From: Escherichia coli
GTDB lineage: Bacteria > Pseudomonadota > Gammaproteobacteria > Enterobacterales > Enterobacteriaceae
Assembly (NCBI RefSeq): GCF_041886205.1
Contig: NZ_CP169029.1
Strand: one strand, 5' to 3'
DNA length: 64,000 nt
The notes under the pieces were generated by a model that was not told the origin of the DNA, ran no database searches, and saw only the letters and a program-made list of their open reading frames with translations. The position numbers were made by a program, and so were the translations under genes. Positions 6,644-26,537 of the stretch are shown in pieces; the stretch's first letter is position 1; every line of letters starts with the position of its first letter.

Positions 6644-7513
6644 TTATTTCAGAACAGTTTTCAGTGCTTCACCGATATCCGCCAGGCTGCGAACGGTTTT
6701 CACGCCTGCGGCTTCCAGAGCAGCGAATTTCTCATCCGCAGTCCCTTTACCACCGGCAATGATGGCACCCGCGTGGCCCATACGTTTGCCTTTCGGCGCA
6801 GTCACACCAGCGATGTAACCTACAACTGGCTTGGTAACGTGCTCTTTGATGTACGCAGCAGCTTCTTCTTCTGCGCTACCGCCGATCTCACCGATCATCA
6901 CGATCGCTTCGGTCTGCGGATCTTTTTCGAACATTTCGAGGATGTCGATGAAGTTAGCGCCAGGGATCGGGTCACCGCCGATACCGACACAGGTCGACTG
7001 ACCGAAACCGTAATCCGTGGTCTGTTTAACCGCTTCATAGGTCAGTGTACCGGAACGGGAAACGATACCCACTTTACCCGGTTTGTGAATGTGACCCGGC
7101 TGGATACCGATTTTGCATTCACCCGGAGTGATAACGCCCGGGCAGTTCGGGCCGATCATACGAACGCCGGCTTCGTCCAGTTTCACTTTCACAGTCAGCA
7201 TATCCAGCGTCGGGATGCCTTCAGTGATGGTGATAATCAGTTTGATGCCTGCATCAATAGCTTCCAGAATGGAGTCTTTGCAGAACGGTGCTGGTACGTA
7301 GATAACAGAAGCGGTAGCACCAGTAGCAGCAACAGCTTCACGCACGGTGTTGAACACCGGCAGGCCGAGGTGGGTAGTACCGCCTTTACCTGGGGTTACG
7401 CCGCCAACCATTTTAGTGCCGTATGCAATGGCCTGTTCTGAGTGGAAAGTCCCCTGGCTACCGGTAAAGCCCTGGCAGATAACCTTGGTGTTTTTATCAA
7501 TTAAAATGGACAT
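6644..7513 (-). CDS. sucD: Succinyl-CoA synthetase alpha subunit
   Basis: 289-aa [27 protein letters not shown]...; 1-nt overlap with sucC stop. Confidence 0.97.
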
Positions 7514-8679
7514 TATTTCCCCTCCACTGCGGCAACAACCTGCTGAGCTGCATCCGTCAGACCTTTTGCTGCAATAATATTCAGGCCGCTGTCAGCCAGT
7601 TTCTTCGCGCCGAGTTCGGCGTTGTTACCTTCCAGACGTACCACGACCGGTACGTTAACACCCACTTCCGCTACCGCGCCGATGATACCGTCAGCGATCA
7701 GGTCGCAACGAACGATACCGCCGAAGATGTTAACCAGAACGGCTTTCACTTTGTCGTCAGAGAGGATGATTTTGAACGCTTCGGTTACACGTTCTTTGGT
7801 TGCGCCGCCGCCAACGTCCAGGAAGTTAGCCGGTTCGCCGCCGTGCAGTTTAACGATGTCCATCGTACCCATCGCCAGACCTGCGCCGTTAACCATACAA
7901 CCGATGTTACCGTCCAGCGCAACGTAGTTCAGTTCCCACTGTGCAGCCTGTGCTTCACGCGGATCTTCCTGCGACTGGTCACGCATTTCGCGCAGATCAG
8001 GCTGGCGGAACAGTGCGTTGCCATCAGCGCCCAGTTTGCCGTCGAGGCAAATCAGATCGCCCTGTTTGGTGATGACCAGCGGGTTGATTTCGATCAGCGC
8101 CAGGTCGCGCTCCAGGAAAATGGTCGCCAGGCCCATGAAGATTTTGGTGAACTGCTGAACCAGTTTACCTTCCAGACCCAGTTTGAACGCCAGCTCGCGT
8201 CCCTGATACGGCATCGGGCCAGTCAGCGGATCAAGCGCAACTTTGTGGATCAGGTGCGGAGTTTCTTCCGCCACTTTTTCGATTTCCACGCCGCCTTCGG
8301 TGGAGGCCATAAAGACCACGCGACGTGAACTACGGTCTACAACGGCACCGAGATACAGCTCTTTAGCGATATCGGTCGCCGCTTCAACCAGAATCTGGTT
8401 AACCGGTTGGCCATTGGCATCTGTTTGATACGTTACCAGACGTTTGCCCAGCCAGTTTTCTGCAAAAGCACGGATGTCTTCTTTGCTGTTTACAACTTTC
8501 ACACCGCCCGCTTTACCGCGGCCACCAGCGTGAACCTGACATTTCACTACCCACGGACCGGCACCGATTTTTGAAGCGGCTTCTTCTGCTTCGCGCGGAG
8601 TAGTACAGGCATAACCCACCGGTGCTGGTAAGCCATAGCGGGCAAAAAGTTGTTTTGCCTGATATTCATGTAAGTTCAT
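7513..8679 (-). CDS. sucC: Succinyl-CoA synthetase beta subunit
   Basis: 388-aa [21 protein letters not shown]... ATP-grasp. Confidence 0.97.
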
Positions 8680-8761
8680 GTGTTCTGTCCATCCTTCAGT
8701 AATCGTTATCTTTTAAACCGTAGACCGAATATTTCGTATCGCTTCCGGGTATTGTCGGTCA

Positions 8762-8935
8762 CCCGTAGGCCTGATAAGACGCGTTAAGCGTCGCATCAGG
8801 CATCGCTTGTCGGCTGCGGCGCGAGCGCCTTATCCGACCTACATTGGTGCTCCCCGTAGGCCTGATAAGACGCGTAAGCGTCGCATCAGGCTTCAATTGC
8901 CGGAGAAGGCGATAATGCCTTATCCGGTCTATAGT
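8762..8935. repeat. REP/BIME cluster in sucB-sucC intergenic region
   Basis: Multiple copies of the REP palindrome motif (gcctgataagacgcg...cgtcgcatcaggc; gccttatccg.cctac) seen directly. Confidence 0.7.
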
Positions 8936-8954
8936 GCAGGTGAATCTTAAACTA

Positions 8955-10172
8955 CTACACGTCCAGCAGCAGACGCGTCGGATCTTCCAGCAACTCTTTG
9001 ATCGTTACCAGGAAGCCCACGGATTCGCGACCATCGATCAGACGGTGATCGTAGGACAGCGCCAGGTACATCATCGGCAGGATCTCAACCTGACCATTCA
9101 CCGCCATCGGACGATCTTTGATAGCGTGCATACCCAGAATTGCGCTCTGCGGCGGGTTGATGATCGGCGTAGACATCAGGGAACCGAACACACCACCGTT
9201 GGTGATGGTGAAGTTACCACCGGTCAGATCTTCAACCGTCAGCTTGCCGTCACGGCCTTTAACTGCCAGCTCTTTGATTTTCTTCTCGATGTCTGCCATG
9301 CCGAGGGTATCGACATCACGCAGTACCGGCGTCACCAGGCCGCGCGGCGTAGAAACCGCCATGCTGACGTCGAAATAGTTGTGGTAAACCACGTCATCAC
9401 CGTCGATAGAAGCATTCACTTCCGGGTAACGTTTCAGGGCTTCAACCACCGCTTTCACGTAGAAGGACATAAAACCCAGACGGATGCCGTGGCGTTTTTC
9501 AAACGCTTCACCGTACTGCTTACGCAGATCCATAATCGGCTTCATGTTGACTTCGTTGAACGTGGTCAGCATGGCGGTGGAGTTTTTCGCTTCCAGCAGA
9601 CGCTCTGCCACACGCTTACGCAGGCGAGTCATCGGGACACGTTTTTCACTACGTGCAGCCAGAGCCGGTTGCGCCGCCGGAGCAGCCGCTGCCGGAGCAG
9701 ACTCTTTCGCCGGGGCTTTCGCCAGATGTTTTTCCACATCTTCACGAGTCAGACGACCACCCACACCGGTGCCTTTAATGGCGCTGGCGTCGAGATTGTG
9801 TTCAGCCAGCAGGCGACGGATCGCCGGGCTTAACGCATCGTTGTTTTGCTCTTCCAGAGACGCCTGCTGGCGTTGCGCCGGAGTGGACGCTTTCTCTTCA
9901 GATTTGGCGCTGGTTTCTTTACCGGCGCTGTTGCCTTCACGCAGGCGACCAAGGATCTGACGAGACGTTACCGTTGTACCTTCATCTTCCAGAACCGCAT
10001 CCAGAATGCCGTCTGCTGATGCCGGTACTTCCAGTACCACTTTGTCAGTTTCGATTTCTACCAGCACTTCATCACGTACGACTGCGTCGCCGGGTTTTTT
10101 ATGCCAGGTTGCGACGGTGGCATCGGCTACGGATTCAGGCAGGTCAGGGACCAGAATATCTACGCTACTCAT
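8955..10172 (-). CDS. sucB: 2-oxoglutarate dehydrogenase E2 (dihydrolipoyl succinyltransferase)
   Basis: 405-aa ORF with N-terminal lipoyl domain ([11 protein letters not shown]) and Ala/Pro-rich linker. Confidence 0.97.
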
Positions 10173-16517: not shown

Positions 16518-17225
16518 GAATAACGCCCACATGCTGTTCTTATTATTCCCTGGGGACTACGGGCACAGAGGTTAACTTTCTGTTACCTGGAGACGTCGGG
16601 ATTTCCTTCCTCCGGTCTGCTTGCGGGTCAGACAGCGTCCTTTCTATAACTGCGCGTCATGCAAAACACTGCTTCCAGATGCGAAAACGACACGTTACAA
16701 CGCTGGGTGGCTCGGGATTGCAGGGTGTTCCGGAGACCTGGCGGCAGTATAGGCCGTTCACAAAATCATTACAATTAACCTACATATAGTTTGTCGGGTT
16801 TTATCCTGAACAGTGATCCAGGTCACGATAACAACATTTATTTAATTTTTAATCATCTAATTTGACAATCATTCAACAAAGTTGTTACAAACATTACCAG
16901 GAAAAGCATATAATGCGTAAAAGTTATGAAGTCGGTATTTCACCTAAGATTAACTTATGTAACAGTGTGGAAGTATTGACCAATTCATTCGGGACAGTTA
17001 TTAGTGGTAGACAAGTTTAATAATTCGGATTGCTAAGTACTTGATTCGCCATTTATTCGTCATCAATGGATCCTTTACCTGCAAGCGCCCAGAGCTCTGT
17101 ACCCAGGTTTTCCCCTCTTTCACAGAGCGGCGAGCCAAATAAAAAACGGGTAAAGCCAGGTTGATGTGCGAAGGCAAATTTAAGTTCCGGCAGTCTTACG
17201 CAATAAGGCGCTAAGGAGACCTTAA
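16518..17225. promoter_or_regulatory. Divergent gltA / sdhCDAB-sucABCD promoter-control region
   Basis: About 700 bp, AT-rich, no credible ORF, lying between divergently transcribed gltA and sdhC; this intergenic region is known to carry the promoters of both operons. Individual sites not resolved here. Confidence 0.6.
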
Positions 17226-18509
17226 ATGGCTGATACAAAAGCAAAACTCACCCTCAACGGGGACACAGCTGTTGAACTGGATGTGCTGAAAGGCACGCTG
17301 GGTCAAGATGTTATTGATATCCGTACTCTCGGCTCAAAAGGTGTGTTCACCTTTGACCCAGGCTTCACTTCAACCGCATCCTGCGAATCTAAAATTACTT
17401 TTATTGATGGTGATGAAGGTATTTTGCTGCACCGCGGTTTCCCGATCGATCAGCTGGCGACCGATTCTAACTACCTGGAAGTTTGTTACATCCTGCTGAA
17501 TGGTGAAAAACCGACTCAGGAACAGTATGACGAATTTAAAACTACGGTGACCCGTCATACCATGATCCACGAGCAGATTACCCGTCTGTTCCATGCTTTC
17601 CGTCGCGACTCGCATCCAATGGCAGTCATGTGTGGTATTACCGGCGCGCTGGCGGCGTTCTATCACGACTCGCTGGATGTTAACAATCCTCGTCACCGTG
17701 AAATTGCCGCGTTCCGCCTGTTGTCGAAAATGCCGACCATGGCCGCGATGTGTTACAAGTATTCCATTGGTCAGCCATTTGTTTACCCGCGCAACGATCT
17801 CTCCTACGCCGGTAACTTCCTGAATATGATGTTCTCTACGCCGTGCGAACCGTATGAAGTTAATCCGATTCTGGAACGTGCTATGGACCGTATTCTGATC
17901 CTGCACGCTGACCATGAACAGAACGCCTCCACCTCCACCGTGCGTACCGCTGGCTCTTCGGGTGCGAACCCATTTGCCTGTATCGCAGCAGGTATTGCTT
18001 CACTGTGGGGACCTGCGCACGGTGGTGCTAACGAAGCAGCGCTGAAAATGCTGGAAGAAATCAGCTCCGTTAAACACATTCCGGAATTTGTTCGTCGTGC
18101 GAAAGATAAAAATGATTCTTTCCGCCTGATGGGCTTCGGTCACCGCGTATACAAAAATTACGACCCGCGCGCCACCGTAATGCGTGAAACCTGCCATGAA
18201 GTTCTGAAAGAGTTGGGCACGAAAGATGACCTGCTGGAAGTGGCTATGGAACTGGAAAACATCGCGCTGAACGACCCGTACTTTATCGAGAAGAAACTGT
18301 ACCCGAACGTCGATTTCTACTCTGGTATCATCCTGAAAGCGATGGGTATTCCGTCTTCCATGTTCACCGTCATTTTCGCAATGGCACGTACCGTTGGCTG
18401 GATCGCCCACTGGAGCGAAATGCACAGTGACGGTATGAAGATTGCCCGTCCGCGTCAGCTGTATACAGGATATGAAAAACGCGACTTTAAAAGCGATATC
18501 AAGCGTTAA
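17226..18509 (+). CDS. gltA: Citrate synthase
   Basis: 427-aa [39 protein letters not shown]... Confidence 0.97.
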
Positions 18510-18538
18510 TGGTTGATTGCTAAGTAGTAAATATTTTA

Positions 18539-18571
18539 ACCCGCCATTCATATGGCGGGTTGATTTTTATA
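18539..18571 (+). terminator. Intrinsic terminator downstream of gltA
   Basis: Hairpin aacccgccat-tcat-atggcgggtt followed by T-rich tract. Confidence 0.6.
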
Positions 18572-18900
18572 TGCCTAAACACAAAAAATTGTAAAAATAA
18601 AATCCACTATCGGATATTCATATATTCTAAAAAAATATATATCGGTATAAATTATAAACAAATCGATGGCTTTTAATCACCTATGTTCCTCTCAGTCACA
18701 TGAATAAACCACCAAATATAGCGCTTCCCTATAATTTCCAATGTTTTATTCATTAAACAATTAATTCATGTAATCAATTAATTACTTTTACATTTAATAA
18801 AATTAATAATATTTTTAAGAAAAACTAAAAACATTCGACAATTAAATAAGATATTCTTGCACCGATATACCTTTTTTCTTTTCTGTTAAAGGACTCAGTT

Positions 18901-19467
18901 ATGTTTAAAGGACAAAAAACATTGGCCGCACTGGCCGTATCTCTGCTGTTCACTGCACCTGTTTATGCAGCTGATGAAGGATCCGGTGAAATTCACTTTA
19001 AAGGTGAGGTTATTGAAGCGCCTTGTGAAATACATCAGGATGATATTGATAAAGAAGTTGAACTTGGTCAGGTGACCACCAGCCACATTAATCAGTCACA
19101 TCACAGCGATGCCGTTGCTGTCGACCTGCGCTTAGTCAACTGCGATCTGGAAAACTCCAGCAACGGTTCCGGTGGCAAGATTTCTAAAGTTGCAGTCACC
19201 TTTGATAGCTCAGCGAAAACAACCGGCGCAGATCCGATTCTCAACAACACCAGCACGGGTGAAGCCACCGGCGTCGGCGTGCGTTTATTGAATAAAAATC
19301 AAACCAATATCGTTTTAGGCACCGCTGCTCCTGACATCGACCTGGCACCGACCTCCAGCGAACAAACGCTGAATTTCTTTGCCTGGATGGAACAAATTGA
19401 TCAGGCAACACCTGTAACGCCAGGCGCAGTTACAGCGAATGCGACCTACGTGCTGGATTATAAATAA
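18901..19467 (+). CDS. ybgD: Fimbrial-like major subunit (type 1 pilin family)
   Basis: 188-aa ORF with signal peptide (MFKGQKTLAALAVSLLFTAPVYA) and pilin-type C-terminus. Confidence 0.85.
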   Translation: MFKGQKTLAALAVSLLFTAPVYAADEGSGEIHFKGEVIEAPCEIHQDDIDKEVELGQVTTSHINQSHHSDAVAVDLRLVNCDLENSSNGSGGKISKVAVTFDSSAKTTGADPILNNTSTGEATGVGVRLLNKNQTNIVLGTAAPDIDLAPTSSEQTLNFFAWMEQIDQATPVTPGAVTANATYVLDYK

Positions 19468-19517: not shown

Positions 19518-21977
19518 ATGGACACCGTGAATATTTATCGACTCTCTTTTGTATCCTGCCTGGTCATGGCGATGCCTTCCGCATTGGCGGTCGAATTCAA
19601 CCTGAATGTTCTCGATAAATCGATGCGCGATCGTATTGATATATCATTATTAAAGGAAAAAGGTGTCATTGCTCCAGGCGAATATTTTGTTAGCGTTGCG
19701 GTAAATAATAACCAAATCAGTAACGGGCAAAAGATTAACTGGCACAAAAATGACGATAAAACCATTCCATGCATCAATGATTTACTGGTCGATAAATTTG
19801 GCTTAAAACCTGAAGTCCGTCAGTCGTTACCATTGATAAATCAGTGCGTCGATTTTAGCTCCCGACCTGAAATGCTCTTCAATTTTGATCAGGCCAGTCA
19901 GCAACTAAATATCACCATTCCGCAGGCCTGGCTGGCGTGGCACTCAGATAACTGGCCCCCACCCTCCACATGGAAAGAAGGTGTCGCCGGTGTCCTGATG
20001 GATTACAACTTGTTTGCCAGCAGCTACCGCCCACAGGATGGCAGCAGCAGCACTAATCTTAACGCCTATGGAACAGCCGGAATCAACACGGGGGCATGGC
20101 GCTTACGCAGTGATTATCAGTTGAATCAGACTGATAGCGATGATAACCATGAACAGTCAGGCGAAATATCACGCACCTATCTTTTTCGCCCGTTACCGCA
20201 ATTAGGTTCAAAATTAACCCTCGGCGAAACGGATTTTAGTTCCAATATTTTCGACGGTTTTTCTTATACCGGCGCGGCACTGGCAAGTGACGATCGAATG
20301 TTGCCATGGGAACTACGCGGCTACGCCCCACAAATTAGCGGTATTGCACAGACCAATGCCACGGTGACGATCAGTCAATCAGGCCGCGTCATTTACCAGA
20401 AAAAAGTCCCACCAGGCCCATTTATCATTGACGACCTTAATCAGTCCGTCCAGGGGACGCTGGATGTCAAAGTGACGGAAGAAGATGGTCGGGTGAACAA
20501 TTTCCAGGTTTCGGCAGCATCGACGCCCTTTCTGACTCGCCAGGGACAGGTGCGCTATAAACTGGCCGCGGGTCAGCCACGGCCCTCCATGTCACATCAA
20601 ACTGAAAATGAAACCTTTTTTAGCAATGAAGTTTCCTGGGGGATGCTCTCAAACACCTCGCTGTACGGCGGCCTGCTGCTTTCTGGTGATGACTACCATT
20701 CTGCCGCAATAGGTATCGGGCAAAATATGCTGTGGCTTGGCGCGCTGTCGTTTGATGTCACGTGGGCCAGTAGTCACTTTGATACTCAGCAGGACGAGCG
20801 GGGCTTAAGCTACCGTTTTAATTACAGCAAACAAGTGGATGCCACCAACAGCACGATTTCGCTCGCCGCTTATCGTTTCTCCGATCGTCATTTTCACAGC
20901 TACGCCAACTATCTTGATCACAAATACAACGACAACGATGCGCAGGACGAAAAACAGACGATCAGCTTATCCGTGGGCCAACCGATTACCCCACTAAACC
21001 TCAATCTTTACGCCAACCTGCTGCATCAAACCTGGTGGAATGCAGACGCCTCCACGACCGCTAACATCACGGCGGGTTTTAATGTTGATATTGGTGACTG
21101 GAGAGATATCTCGATCTCAACGTCATTCAATACGACCCATTACGAAGATAAAGAGCGCGACAACCAGATTTACCTGTCGATTTCGCTCCCCTTCGGTAAC
21201 GGTGGTCGGGTTGGCTATGACATGCAAAACAGTAGCCACAGCACCACACACCGCATGTCGTGGAACGACACGCTGGATGAACGTAATAGCTGGGGCATGT
21301 CTGCCGGACTGCAATCCGACCGTCCGGACAATGGAGCCCAGGTGAGCGGTAACTATCAGCATCTGAGTTCAGCGGGTGAGTGGGATATTTCTGGTACCTA
21401 TGCCGCCAATGATTACAGTTCCGTCAGCAGCAGCTGGAGCGGTTCTTTCACCGCAACCCAATATGGTGCAGCGTTTCATCGCCGCAGCTCCACCAATGAA
21501 CCACGCCTGATGGTCAGCACCGATGGCGTGGCAGATATTCCGGTTCAGGGCAATCTCGACTACACCAACCATTTTGGTATTGCGGTGGTTCCATTGATTT
21601 CCAGTTACCAGCCTTCCACCGTGGCGGTCAACATGAATGACTTACCCGACGGCGTAACAGTTGCAGAAAACGTTATCAAAGAAACGTGGATTGAAGGCGC
21701 GATAGGTTACAAATCACTGGCTTCCCGTTCCGGTAAAGACGTTAACGTCATCATTCGCAACGTCAGCGGTCAGTTCCCTCCCCTCGGTGCGGATATCCGC
21801 CAGCATGACAGCGGCATTAGCGTGGGAATGGTTGGCGAGGAAGGACACGCCTGGTTAAGCGGAGTCGCTGAAAATCAAAAATTTACCGTGGTCTGGGGTG
21901 ATAGCCAGCGTTGCTCGATCCATCTTCCTGAACATATGGAAGACACCGCAAATCGCCTGATTTTACCTTGTCATTAA
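19518..21977 (+). CDS. ybgQ: Fimbrial outer-membrane usher protein
   Basis: About 820-aa ORF in usher position; exact start uncertain (ATG at 19518 or GTG at 19527). Confidence 0.85.
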   Translation: MDTVNIYRLSFVSCLVMAMPSALAVEFNLNVLDKSMRDRIDISLLKEKGVIAPGEYFVSVAVNNNQISNGQKINWHKNDDKTIPCINDLLVDKFGLKPEVRQSLPLINQCVDFSSRPEMLFNFDQASQQLNITIPQAWLAWHSDNWPPPSTWKEGVAGVLMDYNLFASSYRPQDGSSSTNLNAYGTAGINTGAWRLRSDYQLNQTDSDDNHEQSGEISRTYLFRPLPQLGSKLTLGETDFSSNIFDGFSYTGAALASDDRMLPWELRGYAPQISGIAQTNATVTISQSGRVIYQKKVPPGPFIIDDLNQSVQGTLDVKVTEEDGRVNNFQVSAASTPFLTRQGQVRYKLAAGQPRPSMSHQTENETFFSNEVSWGMLSNTSLYGGLLLSGDDYHSAAIGIGQNMLWLGALSFDVTWASSHFDTQQDERGLSYRFNYSKQVDATNSTISLAAYRFSDRHFHSYANYLDHKYNDNDAQDEKQTISLSVGQPITPLNLNLYANLLHQTWWNADASTTANITAGFNVDIGDWRDISISTSFNTTHYEDKERDNQIYLSISLPFGNGGRVGYDMQNSSHSTTHRMSWNDTLDERNSWGMSAGLQSDRPDNGAQVSGNYQHLSSAGEWDISGTYAANDYSSVSSSWSGSFTATQYGAAFHRRSSTNEPRLMVSTDGVADIPVQGNLDYTNHFGIAVVPLISSYQPSTVAVNMNDLPDGVTVAENVIKETWIEGAIGYKSLASRSGKDVNVIIRNVSGQFPPLGADIRQHDSGISVGMVGEEGHAWLSGVAENQKFTVVWGDSQRCSIHLPEHMEDTANRLILPCH

Positions 21978-21991
21978 TTAAGGAAATGAAA

Positions 21992-22723
21992 ATGACATTT
22001 ATGAAAGGACTTTCCCTTTTGTTGTTGGTTGCCAGTCTGTGCAGCCACGCTGCACTACAACCCGATCGCACTCGTATTGTGTTCAACGCTAATGATAAAG
22101 CTACCAGTCTGCGAGTAGATAATCGTAGCGATAAACTCCCCTACCTCGCTTATTCCTGGCTCGAAAATGAAAAAGGGGAGAAAAGCGACGATCTTCTGGT
22201 CGCCCTGCCACCGATACAACGTCTGGAACCGAAAGCAACAACGCAGGTGCGGATAGTCAAGCAAGCGTCGACCGCGAAATTACCAGGCGATCGCGAAACG
22301 CTATTTTTCTACAATATACGTGAAGTTCCTCCCGCCCCGGAAAAAAACAGCGACCATGCCGTTTTGCAAGTCGCCATCCAGAGTCGTATCAAGGTGTTCT
22401 GGAGACCGTCCGCGTTACGCAAGAAAGCAGGAGAAAAGGTCGAACTGCAGCTGCAAGTCAGCCAGCAGGGCAACCAACTTAGCTTAAAAAACCCGACCGG
22501 TTATTATCTGACAATCGCCTACCTGGGCCGAAATGAGCAAGGCGTTCTCCCGGGTTTCAAAACTGTAATGATTGCGCCTTTTAGTACAGTCAGCACAAAC
22601 ACCGGAAGCTATAGCGGCAGCCAATTTTATCTCGGTTATATGGATGATTACGGCGCGTTACGCATGACAACGCTCAACTGCAGCGGACAATGCCGTTTAC
22701 AAGCAGTGGAGGCGAAGAAATGA
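21992..22723 (+). CDS. ybgP: Fimbrial periplasmic chaperone (PapD-like)
   Basis: About 243-aa ORF with signal peptide; start among three close ATGs is uncertain. Confidence 0.85.
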
Positions 22724-23781
22724 GTGCTGGTAAGCGATTATTGCTCATCTTTTTTCTGCTGTTTCTACCCTTGAAGTCTGCGCTGGCGCTGAACTGCTAT
22801 TTTGGTACTTCCGGCGGGGCGGTAGAAAAATCGGAAGCTATTCAACCATTTGCTGTACCAGGCAATGCCAAACCAGGTGATAAGATCTGGGAATCTGACG
22901 ATATTAAAATTCCCGTCTATTGTGACAACAATACCAACGGCAATTTTGAAAGTGAGCATGTTTATGCCTGGGTAAACCCCTACCCGGGGGTGCAGGATCG
23001 CTATTATCAACTCGGCGTAACTTACAATGGCGTTGATTATGACGCCAACCAGGGAAAAAGCCGCATCGACACTAACCAGTGTATTGACAGTAAGAACATT
23101 GACATTTATATCCCTGAGCAGATTATCGCGATGGGATGGCAGAACAAAATTTGCTCGGGTGATCCCGCTAATATTCACATGTCGCGTACCTTTCTCGCTC
23201 GCATGCGGTTATACGTCAAAATACGAGAAATGCCGCCGCATGATTATCAAAGTACGCTTAGCGACTATATCGTCGTGCAATTTGACGGTGCCGGTAGCGT
23301 TAACGAAGACCCTACTGCCCAAAACCTGAAATATCATATTACTGGTCTGGAAAACATTCGCGTGCTGGATTGCAGCGTCAATTTTTCCATTTCACCGGAA
23401 ACACAGGTGATTGATTTTGGTAAATTTAATTTGCTGGATATTCGTCGCCACACAATGTCGAAAACATTCAGTATTAAGACGACAAAATCACAAAATGACC
23501 AATGCACCGACGGATTTAAAGTCAGTTCCTCGTTTTATACTGAAGAAACGTTGGTTGAAGAAGATAAAGCATTGTTGATTGGTAATGGTCTGAAGCTACG
23601 TTTACTGGATGAAAACGCCTCGCCTTATACCTTCAATAAATATGCTGAATACGCCGATTTCACCAGCGATATGCTGATCTACGAAAAAACCTATACGGCT
23701 GAACTTTCGTCCATTGCAGGCACCCCCATCGAGGCTGGGCCCTTCGATACAGTGGTGCTTTTTAAAATTAACTATAACTGA
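22720..23781 (+). CDS. ybgO: Fimbrial adhesin-like protein
   Basis: 353-aa ORF starting [23 protein letters not shown] (signal peptide); last gene of the operon, 4-bp overlap with ybgP. Confidence 0.8.
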
Positions 23782-24979: not shown

Positions 24980-25767
24980 TGCTGGCAGCCAGGGCACCAG
25001 TAAAACGGGCGAGATGACAGCGTGGTTTTCTCAATGATGCTGCCACAGCGTTCGCACGGTTCGCCATCACGATGAAAAACCTTAAAGCGAAACAGCGCCC
25101 CATGATGCTTATTCTCATCCACCTGCCCCCGCGTAGCGTAAGAAAACCGAGGAATCTCCAGTAACGCGTGTGCGAGTGCATCCAGTTGCGCCGCATTGAG
25201 ATCTTTCGCTTTATGATTTCCAGTCAACCCAACCTGCCAGAGGATCTCCACCCGCAAATAATTGCCAAGCCCAGCCAGAAACGCCTGATCGAGCAGTAAT
25301 CCTGCAAACTGACGGTTACGAAAGCGCGGTGACAATAACCGTTCCTTTACCACCTCCGGCGTCAGATTCGGATCCAGCACATCGGGACCAACGCGTTGTA
25401 AAAACGGATGCGTGGTCAGTTGTTCCGGCCTCAACATCTCAATATCCGAGGCGCTATAAAGCAGAATGGTTTTGTCAGCCGTTTGCAGTTTTACCCGCAA
25501 TACTCGCGTGGTCTGCGGCTCTTCGCCGGTATCAACCACGCGCCAGACGCCGTAAAGCTGATTATGGCTGTAGAGCGTTAAGTCGTTGGAAAAATGAGTT
25601 AACAACGCCTTACCACGCGTTTCCACATGGGTAACGTGTTGACCGATAAGTTGTGATTGATAAGTTTTTAACTGCGGGAAGGCAAACCAGACATCAGTTA
25701 GTGGTTTGCCTTTGATCGCCGCCTCCAGGTTATCCGCTGCACGGCGGATCTCCGGGCCTTCAGGCAT
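24976..25767 (-). CDS. nei: Endonuclease VIII (Fpg/Nei family DNA glycosylase)
   Basis: 263-aa [24 protein letters not shown]..., C-terminal zinc finger [26 protein letters not shown]. Confidence 0.95.
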
Positions 25768-25802
25768 GGTGATATCCTTTTTTCATTCTTTATTAATCGG
25801 GG

Positions 25803-26537
25803 TTATGCTGCGACAACAATCTCCTTTTCGGCAAATGTAGAGCGTAGTCGGCGGGCGAACGCCAGTGCGTGCTCGCCGTCGCCATGCAGGCAGACTGTTT
25901 GCGCCGTGACCGTTGCCCATTCGCCGGTGATACTTTTGACTCTGCCGTGTTGCACCATCTCTAGCGTTTGCGCCAGCGCCTGTTCTTCGTTTTCAATCAA
26001 CGCGCCTGGCTGACTTCGCGGCACCAGCGAGCCGTCAGCCTGATAACCGCGATCGGCAAACACTTCCTCGCGCGTTGTCAGGCCATATTGCTTGCCTGCA
26101 CGAATCAGCTCGCTTCCTGCCAGCCCAACGAGAATCAATGCCGGATCGCAAGCGTATACCGCTCTGGCGATGGCGTCTGCCAGTTGTGCTTCTTTCGCCG
26201 CCTGGTTGTACAACATGCCGTGCGGTTTGACATGACGCATTACGCCGCCTTGCGCACGGGCAATCGTTGCCAGCGCGCCAATTTGATACAGCGTCTGGGC
26301 GTAAACGGTTTCTGGCGGCAGCTGCATGGCGCTGCGACCAAAATTTTCCCTGTCGGGAAAACTCGGGTGAGCGCCAATCGCGACACCATTTTTTATTGCT
26401 TCACGCACGCAAGCCTGCATGGTTTGGGCATCGCCTGCATGAAATCCACAAGCAATATTGGCAGAGGAAACCAGCGTTAATAGCTCTGCGTCGCTGGCGC
26501 AGCCTTCGCCCAGATCGGCGTTCAGGTCAATTTTCAT
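25803..26537 (-). CDS. pxpA: 5-oxoprolinase subunit A (LamB/YcsF family)
   Basis: 244-aa [15 protein letters not shown]...; formerly ybgL. Confidence 0.9.

Follow-up and report, generated by a model that had tools for sequence, protein, structure and literature searches.

A 64,000-nucleotide stretch of Escherichia coli DNA (contig NZ_CP169029.1, called the window here) contains a strongly AT-rich tract of about 330 bp directly upstream of the fimbrial genes ybgD, ybgQ, ybgP, and ybgO. The locus raises the question of whether this tract is the regulatory region of a silenced fimbrial operon and, if so, by what kind of mechanism silencing occurs. Gene order in the window is the same as in K-12, with sucA and sdhBADC on the minus strand followed by gltA, ybgD, ybgQ, ybgP, ybgO, and abrB on the plus strand. 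An earlier interpretation made from the letters alone (the sequence-only reading) had placed the tract upstream of a ybgD-ybgQ-ybgP-ybgO operon, and this identification of the genes proved right. Positions below are numbered along the window, and the elements that frame the tract are as follows.

17226–18509, plus strand: gltA, citrate synthase, the upstream neighbour (98.6–98.9% nucleotide identity to the other E. coli alleles compared, identical protein).
18536–18569, plus strand: intrinsic terminator of gltA, a 10–12 bp GC-rich stem (AACCCGCCAT/ATGGCGGGTT, 18536–18563) followed by a T-run.
18572–18900, no strand: AT-rich spacer, the ybgDQPO regulatory region and a putative platform for H-NS nucleation and spreading, orthologous to the K-12 ybgD/gltA "promoter island".
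18901–19467, plus strand: ybgD, major fimbrial subunit, 188 aa (Pfam Fimbrial, 1–151 of 151, 105.7 bits).
19518–21977, plus strand: ybgQ, outer-membrane usher, 819 aa (PapC_N, Usher 2–548 of 549, and PapC_C, with no frameshift).
21992–22723, plus strand: ybgP, periplasmic chaperone, 243 aa (PapD_N and PapD_C).
22720–23781, plus strand: ybgO, putative two-domain tip adhesin, 353 aa (C-terminal pilin, or Fimbrial, domain at 23.2 bits, slightly below the Pfam cut-off of 25.6).

The operon encodes a complete chaperone-usher set consisting of a major subunit, an usher, a chaperone, and an adhesin-like subunit, all of them intact by Pfam search and stop codon check. No internal stops occur in ybgD, ybgQ, ybgP, or ybgO, and the Pfam domains are full-length, so the genes are as intact as the sequence-only reading had taken them to be. 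That reading had named a frameshift in the usher as a possible refutation, and none was found in ybgQ. No Pfam family matched the N-terminal ~200 amino acids of YbgO. All four ybg genes are also annotated as intact in the closest complete genome, that of strain LHM10-1, which is 100% identical to the window over 18400–19000 and has 27 differences from it over 14.6 kb. Eighteen of the 27 crowd into 576 bp at the nei/pxpA end (25387–25962), and may mark a short tract of recombination. Of 5,071 matches to 18400–19000, one sits on a plasmid-typed record, which could reflect either chromosomal DNA carried by an F-prime-like element or a replicon typed wrongly. Examples of Ybg decay were seen in other strains. 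The ybgQ gene of MS 115-1 is annotated as frameshifted (7116–9574 of that locus). ATCC 25922, a B2-type strain, has lost most of the operon (its locus 7111–7784), from the window equivalent of ~18607 to the middle of ybgO; the deletion begins directly after a conserved block (~18606), and the 396 bp of ybgO that survive it carry a pseudogene annotation.

The full gltA-ybgD spacer in the window is 391 bp long (18510–18900), and the AT-rich tract within it is limited by the gltA terminator on the 5' side and the ybgD ATG (18901) on the 3' side. GC content is 0.24 (76% A+T) over the 329 bp of the tract and 0.52 over the 64-kb window. The stretch 18560–18888 has the lowest GC content of any 329-bp stretch in the window (0.228); values as low as that of the tract occur in 0.1% of 329-bp stretches, every one of which overlaps the tract. 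The AT-richness that the sequence-only reading had noticed is therefore the compositional extreme of the region. Within it, 13 A- or T-tracts reach 4 nt or more, uninterrupted A/T sequence extends for up to 27 nt (18792–18818), and TpA makes up 12.8% of steps, a threefold excess over the 4.3% found in the window as a whole. An A/T string that had been quoted as an example is present at 18778–18819, with the quotation off by one missing T (actual sequence ACTTTTACA, quoted as ACTTTACA). The description of the tract as ORF-free was borne out, in that no ORF longer than 42 aa touches the spacer. The only ORFs are of 20–42 aa and differ between alleles, and hidden small genes were rejected because these ORFs are not conserved. 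The one other place in the window with a GC content below 0.33 is the divergent gltA/sdhC spacer (16748–17076, GC 0.325), which has a small annotated ORF, ybgU (~16913–17020), inside it and is also HNS-marked in K-12 genomic SELEX tables (Shimada 2014, PMC3946193).

Published data on the orthologous K-12 spacer point to H-NS. The ybgD/gltA spacer (413 bp, 751980_413) is among 78 "promoter islands", defined by an extremely high density of transcription start points predicted with the PlatProm algorithm over at least 300 bp (Panyukov & Ozoline 2013, PMC3661553, Table 1). Promoter islands bind RNA polymerase and form open complexes, yet give very little transcript (Panyukov & Ozoline 2013). The K-12 ybgD/gltA island is called foreign DNA by three predictors and is marked "A", meaning that H-NS was bound in all ChIP-chip data sets compared (PMC3661553); consulting H-NS ChIP data for this region was a check proposed with the sequence-only reading, and the outcome agrees with it. 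In commensal E. coli, many of the cryptic chaperone-usher fimbriae are repressed by H-NS, and Ybg is placed among the "core-associated" chaperone-usher fimbriae, with many strains lacking an intact copy (Wurpel 2013). Additionally, ybgQ is among the H-NS-regulated genes in a 2025 NAR paper (PMC12455589). The H-NS interpretation of the spacer matches published knowledge of the K-12 locus and is in that sense already known. Expression under some conditions, which had been anticipated, is also on record: ybgD goes up when BolA is overexpressed, and ybgDQPO levels are 1.6–2.3 log2 higher in HUS-associated STEC.

The window carries a different allele of this spacer from K-12, with 72.5% identity over 329 bp and a spacer GC content of 0.256 compared with 0.29. 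Because identity is this low, the K-12 occupancy data do not transfer directly, and we infer H-NS binding to the window allele from its even higher A+T content. The earlier claim of an H-NS-silenced cryptic operon is thus supported by the literature on the K-12 ortholog and, for the window allele, is suggested by composition. Sequence predictors of H-NS binding were also calculated. The H-NS high-affinity motif is TCGATAAATT. A single match to TCGATAAATT, with two mismatches, occurs in the tract, no more than composition predicts, and AA/TT phasing at the 10–11 bp helical repeat is absent. In a wedge model, mean curvature is at the 94th percentile and peak curvature at the 98th (14.9 degrees per turn, at 18586). 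When AT content and curvature were calculated as the sequence-only reading had proposed, composition gave an extreme value and curvature was just moderately high. Curvature, phasing, and the motif appear to add nothing beyond composition. A high-affinity motif or curvature is helpful, not required, for H-NS binding.

Candidate promoters were located with a hexamer scan, and the following elements are oriented toward ybgD.

18576–18603, plus strand: distal promoter-like site, TAAACA-16-TAAAAT, found in the hexamer scan and containing TTGTAAAAAT.
18787–18815, plus strand: predicted proximal promoter-like site, TTTACA-17-TATTTT, within the best-conserved interior block (18786–18832).
18889–18893, plus strand: Shine-Dalgarno sequence AAGGA, 7 nt upstream of the ybgD ATG.

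Both promoter-like sites are sigma-70-like. The distal site falls inside a conserved island (18565–18603); its TTGTAAAAAT is invariant across the E. coli alleles, and an extended -10-like TGTAAAAAT lies within it at 18590–18598. Its hexamers are those assigned to ybgD in K-12, where genomic SELEX with RpoD holoenzyme placed a site, TAAACA-16-TAAAAT, that carries an HNS mark (Shimada 2014, PMC3946193, Table 2). The proximal -10 (TATTTT, TATTAT, or TATTGT) is retained in E. whittamii and strain E69 as well as in every E. coli allele. Transcription from the proximal site is predicted to start near 18822 and would give a leader of ~79 nt. Conserved blocks in the spacer comprise the terminator stem, which is retained in all alleles and in other Escherichia species, 18565–18603, the Shine-Dalgarno sequence, and above all 18786–18832. 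Since these blocks are kept, and 18786–18832 most of all, we favour the proximal site as the probable working promoter. The sequence around the Shine-Dalgarno, TTAAAGGACTC-GTT, is invariant across alleles. The string TTAAAGGAC is present twice, once in the Shine-Dalgarno region (18886–18894) and once over ybgD codons 2–4 (18905–18913), with both copies invariant in every allele examined; an in-frame TTG (18922) lies 9 nt beyond the second copy. An IHF-like core (AATCAATTAATTA, 18772–18784) spotted by eye was dropped when it was not conserved in other alleles.

An ordinary weak promoter region would be a simpler account of the tract. Its AT-richness would then come from a terminator tail plus a promoter; dedicated silencing would play no part, and expression would be low because the promoter is poor or an activator is missing. 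The promoter-like sites are indeed weak (9 of 12 matches) and are not enriched, with three found against 3.5 expected in dinucleotide shuffles by a simple hexamer scan rather than PlatProm, and the tract has neither a specific H-NS motif nor strong curvature. Against this, nothing else in the 64 kb approaches 24% GC over 330 bp, and every ChIP data set shows H-NS on the K-12 ortholog, to which RNA polymerase binds without making transcripts. We consider the weak-promoter explanation improbable.

We regard it as likely instead that the 329-bp tract is the ybgDQPO promoter region and is silenced by H-NS polymerising over AT-rich DNA. Composition, anatomy, the four intact genes, orthology to K-12, and conservation of the promoter-like blocks were all observed, and no switch of another type was found. 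The literature on the K-12 ortholog contributes occupancy by H-NS and RNA polymerase, very low transcript, and H-NS regulation of the operon. In the mechanism that we propose, TpA-rich DNA with 76% A+T would give RNA polymerase several sigma-70-like sites, the distal one at 18576–18603 and the better-conserved proximal one at 18787–18815, and the same composition would make the tract a preferred H-NS substrate. H-NS would nucleate in the spacer and polymerise over its whole length, probably with StpA/Hha, and the filament probably reaches the AT-richer 5' part of ybgQ. Polymerase would be excluded or trapped, leaving an intact operon "cryptic" in laboratory culture. Expression would occur only once silencing is lifted, as under high BolA or in certain STEC backgrounds. 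We infer that this mechanism holds for the more AT-rich window allele, and likewise which promoter-like site works and what relieves silencing. The spacer stays AT-rich (GC 0.26–0.32) in three E. coli alleles and three other Escherichia lineages despite 25%–50% divergence, as a compositional rather than sequence-specific constraint predicts.

Comparison with other genomes revealed how abruptly the spacer diverges. Against MG1655, the window is 98%–100% identical through gltA to ~18593 and then falls abruptly to 64%–77% over 18594–18893 with two gap columns only, before returning to 95% over the ybgD signal-peptide codons and dropping to 63%–80% over mature ybgD. Three spacer classes were identified among 5,426 complete E. 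coli genomes, pairwise 64%–76% identical and all 388–391 bp long, with flanking gltA sequences ~99% identical. Type I, the window allele, occurs in ~1,500 genomes, 11 of them at 99% identity or higher and the others near 94%; type II, the K-12 allele, occurs in 929; and type III, the allele of REL606 and CX08, occurs in 1,333. A further ~575 genomes match just the first 11%–20% of the type III spacer query, and one listed example of these partial matches overlies a "type 1 fimbrial protein" remnant, as in ATCC 25922. The K-12-type spacer was also found at 100% identity over the 395 bp upstream of ybgD in JAIJJM010000367.1, a 3,220-bp contig of a "Collinsella sp." MAG, where E. coli DNA has almost certainly contaminated an Actinobacteria MAG. 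Synonymous divergence between types is low in gltA (dS 0.04–0.06) and high in ybgD when K-12 is compared with the others (dS 1.2–1.3, dN/dS 0.13). The YbgD proteins of K-12 and the window share 80% amino acid identity, ybgP has a dS of 0.8, and divergence is far smaller in ybgO and over most of ybgQ. The ybg operon is a recombination mosaic. Differences between ybgD alleles already serve phylogroup PCR typing.

The limits of the divergent segment were placed with a pair of strains, JS316 (type I) and 08-00022 (type III), whose YbgD proteins do not differ and whose flanks on both sides (18369–18528 and 18969–19348) are ~99%–100% identical.

18529–18968, no strand: hypervariable "switched" cassette of ~440 bp, made up of the spacer and the first ~70 nt of ybgD (49%–70% identity between JS316 and 08-00022).

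Judged from these alignments, the spacer swaps as a sharply bounded unit, independently of which ybgD coding allele follows it. Identity to E. coli is 92%–95% at the 3' end of gltA and 50%–72% in the spacer for E. whittamii, "E. coli" E69, and Escherichia sp. E1V33 (93%–95% in gltA and 58%–72% in the spacer for E. whittamii and E69). Spacer identities within E. coli are like those across species, so divergence within the species equals divergence between species. Switched intergenic regions with effects on expression are an established phenomenon (Oren et al. 2014; Thorpe et al. 2018, Piggy), recognized by at least two alleles of less than 90% identity between the same genes together with recombination breakpoints. 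The gltA-ybgD spacer has three such classes and boundaries at 18529 and 18968. Since this pattern fits the known class, the spacer would be a further example of switched intergenic regions and not a new kind. Its alleles share with those described the identity below 90%, the same two flanking genes, and the sharp boundaries; they differ in being homologous and collinear (64%–76% identical with almost no indels) rather than unrelated sequences.

These alleles allow an account that complements H-NS silencing, in which the spacer is an H-NS target and also a recombining unit whose three or more ancient haplotypes give lineage-specific regulation of ybg. In its favour are the low spacer identity between types I, II, and III next to nearly identical gltA sequences, the commonness of all three types, the 30%–51% difference between JS316 and 08-00022 over 18529–18968 despite like flanks and the same YbgD, divergence that matches that from E. 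whittamii and E69, and the precedent for switching with expression effects. However, all alleles are AT-rich and have both promoter-like sites and a Shine-Dalgarno sequence, so they may not differ in function and may simply be old, and relaxed constraint with recombination, rather than selection, could explain the divergence. We hold this complementary account to be a real possibility that falls short of probable. Somewhat more doubtful still is the full claim that a ~440-bp cassette (18529–18968) with at least three ancient, collinear haplotypes reassorts relative to the ybgD allele and thereby may confer lineage-specific regulation of the fimbria.

Spacer length is nearly constant at 388–391 bp in E. 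coli types I–III and in E. whittamii, despite 25%–36% substitutions and with one to ~5 indel events. No explanation for this was found in RNA structure, ORFs, or inversion. A long structured 5' leader or an sRNA transcribed from the distal promoter would account for constant length among such divergent alleles, and the distal block (18565–18603), from which a leader of ~295 nt would be made, is conserved. However, the spacer has no Rfam match even at E ≤ 1, the strand folds no better than shuffled sequences (z = 0.20), and the six-allele consensus fold (alifold) reaches just −1.45 kcal/mol with a single compensatory pair. With no Rfam match, an unexceptional fold, and a near-empty consensus structure, a conserved leader RNA or sRNA was rejected; we give this explanation very little probability.

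A phase-variable switch was weighed in two forms, a fimS-like inversion and Pap-like Dam/Lrp methylation. The first would use a pair of inverted repeats.

18630–18877, no strand: long-range inverted repeat with arms at 18630–18646 and 18861–18877 (15 of 17 positions complementary).

The arms bracket 214 bp that include the proximal promoter-like site, and the repeat is better than in shuffled sequences for type I alleles (P ~0.002, with zones chosen post hoc). However, it is not significant or kept in K-12 and type III alleles. A flipped version of the 214-bp segment, used as a query, had no match with at least 80% coverage in any of the 5,426 genomes, ~1,500 of which are type I, and the annotation between gltA and abrB includes neither a recombinase nor a papI/papB-like gene. 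The repeat is most likely allele-specific or due to chance. With no flipped copy in those genomes, a repeat that is not conserved, and no annotated recombinase, a fimS-like invertible element was rejected. A Pap-like Dam switch was rejected as well, since the 391-bp spacer contains no GATC (1.9 expected) and no papI/papB-like gene is annotated at the locus. Phase variation of either kind is accordingly very unlikely. Pap-type (Dam/Lrp) and fimS-type promoters share with ybg an AT-rich region upstream of the major subunit of a chaperone-usher system; ybg differs from them in having no GATC, no inversion in ~1,500 genomes, and no annotated genes like those for PapI/PapB or FimB/FimE.

H-NS silencing of an AT-rich promoter region, the preferred reading, places the ybg spacer among several similar ones. 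The K-12 gltA-ybgD spacer is the closest, with the same flanking genes, nearly the same length (391 bp in the window and 389 bp in K-12), and the terminator, distal hexamers, proximal block, and Shine-Dalgarno sequence in common; the window allele differs in sequence and is more AT-rich, and the occupancy data for H-NS and RNA polymerase belong to the K-12 allele only. An AT-rich, ORF-free region upstream of the major subunit is also shared with yad, yeh, yfc, yra, sfm, elf/ycb, and fimB/fimE/fimA, and H-NS-bound promoter islands occur at yadN, sfmA, yehD, yfcV, yraH, elfA, and fim (PMC3661553, Table 1). Cryptic chaperone-usher operons are poorly expressed in the laboratory (Wurpel 2013). Unlike fim, ybg has no recombinase-driven invertible element, and it differs from other cryptic chaperone-usher operons in having no dedicated regulator gene annotated between gltA and abrB.

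The tract thus re-identifies a catalogued H-NS-bound "promoter island" of a cryptic fimbrial operon, a real but ordinary element. The window adds a strain with an intact operon to the record of a "core-associated" fimbria, which B2 strains lack through deletion and which has decayed in other strains. The allele structure is a natural experiment in which three very different AT-rich promoters precede the same intact operon and sometimes the same subunit protein. These alleles could be used to ask whether H-NS silences by sequence or by composition and whether E. coli lineages adjust adhesin expression by exchanging promoters. If the spacer does act as a switched cassette, lineages would silence or induce the same fimbria differently, and the adhesin would be diversified in its regulation instead of its antigens, perhaps under balancing selection.
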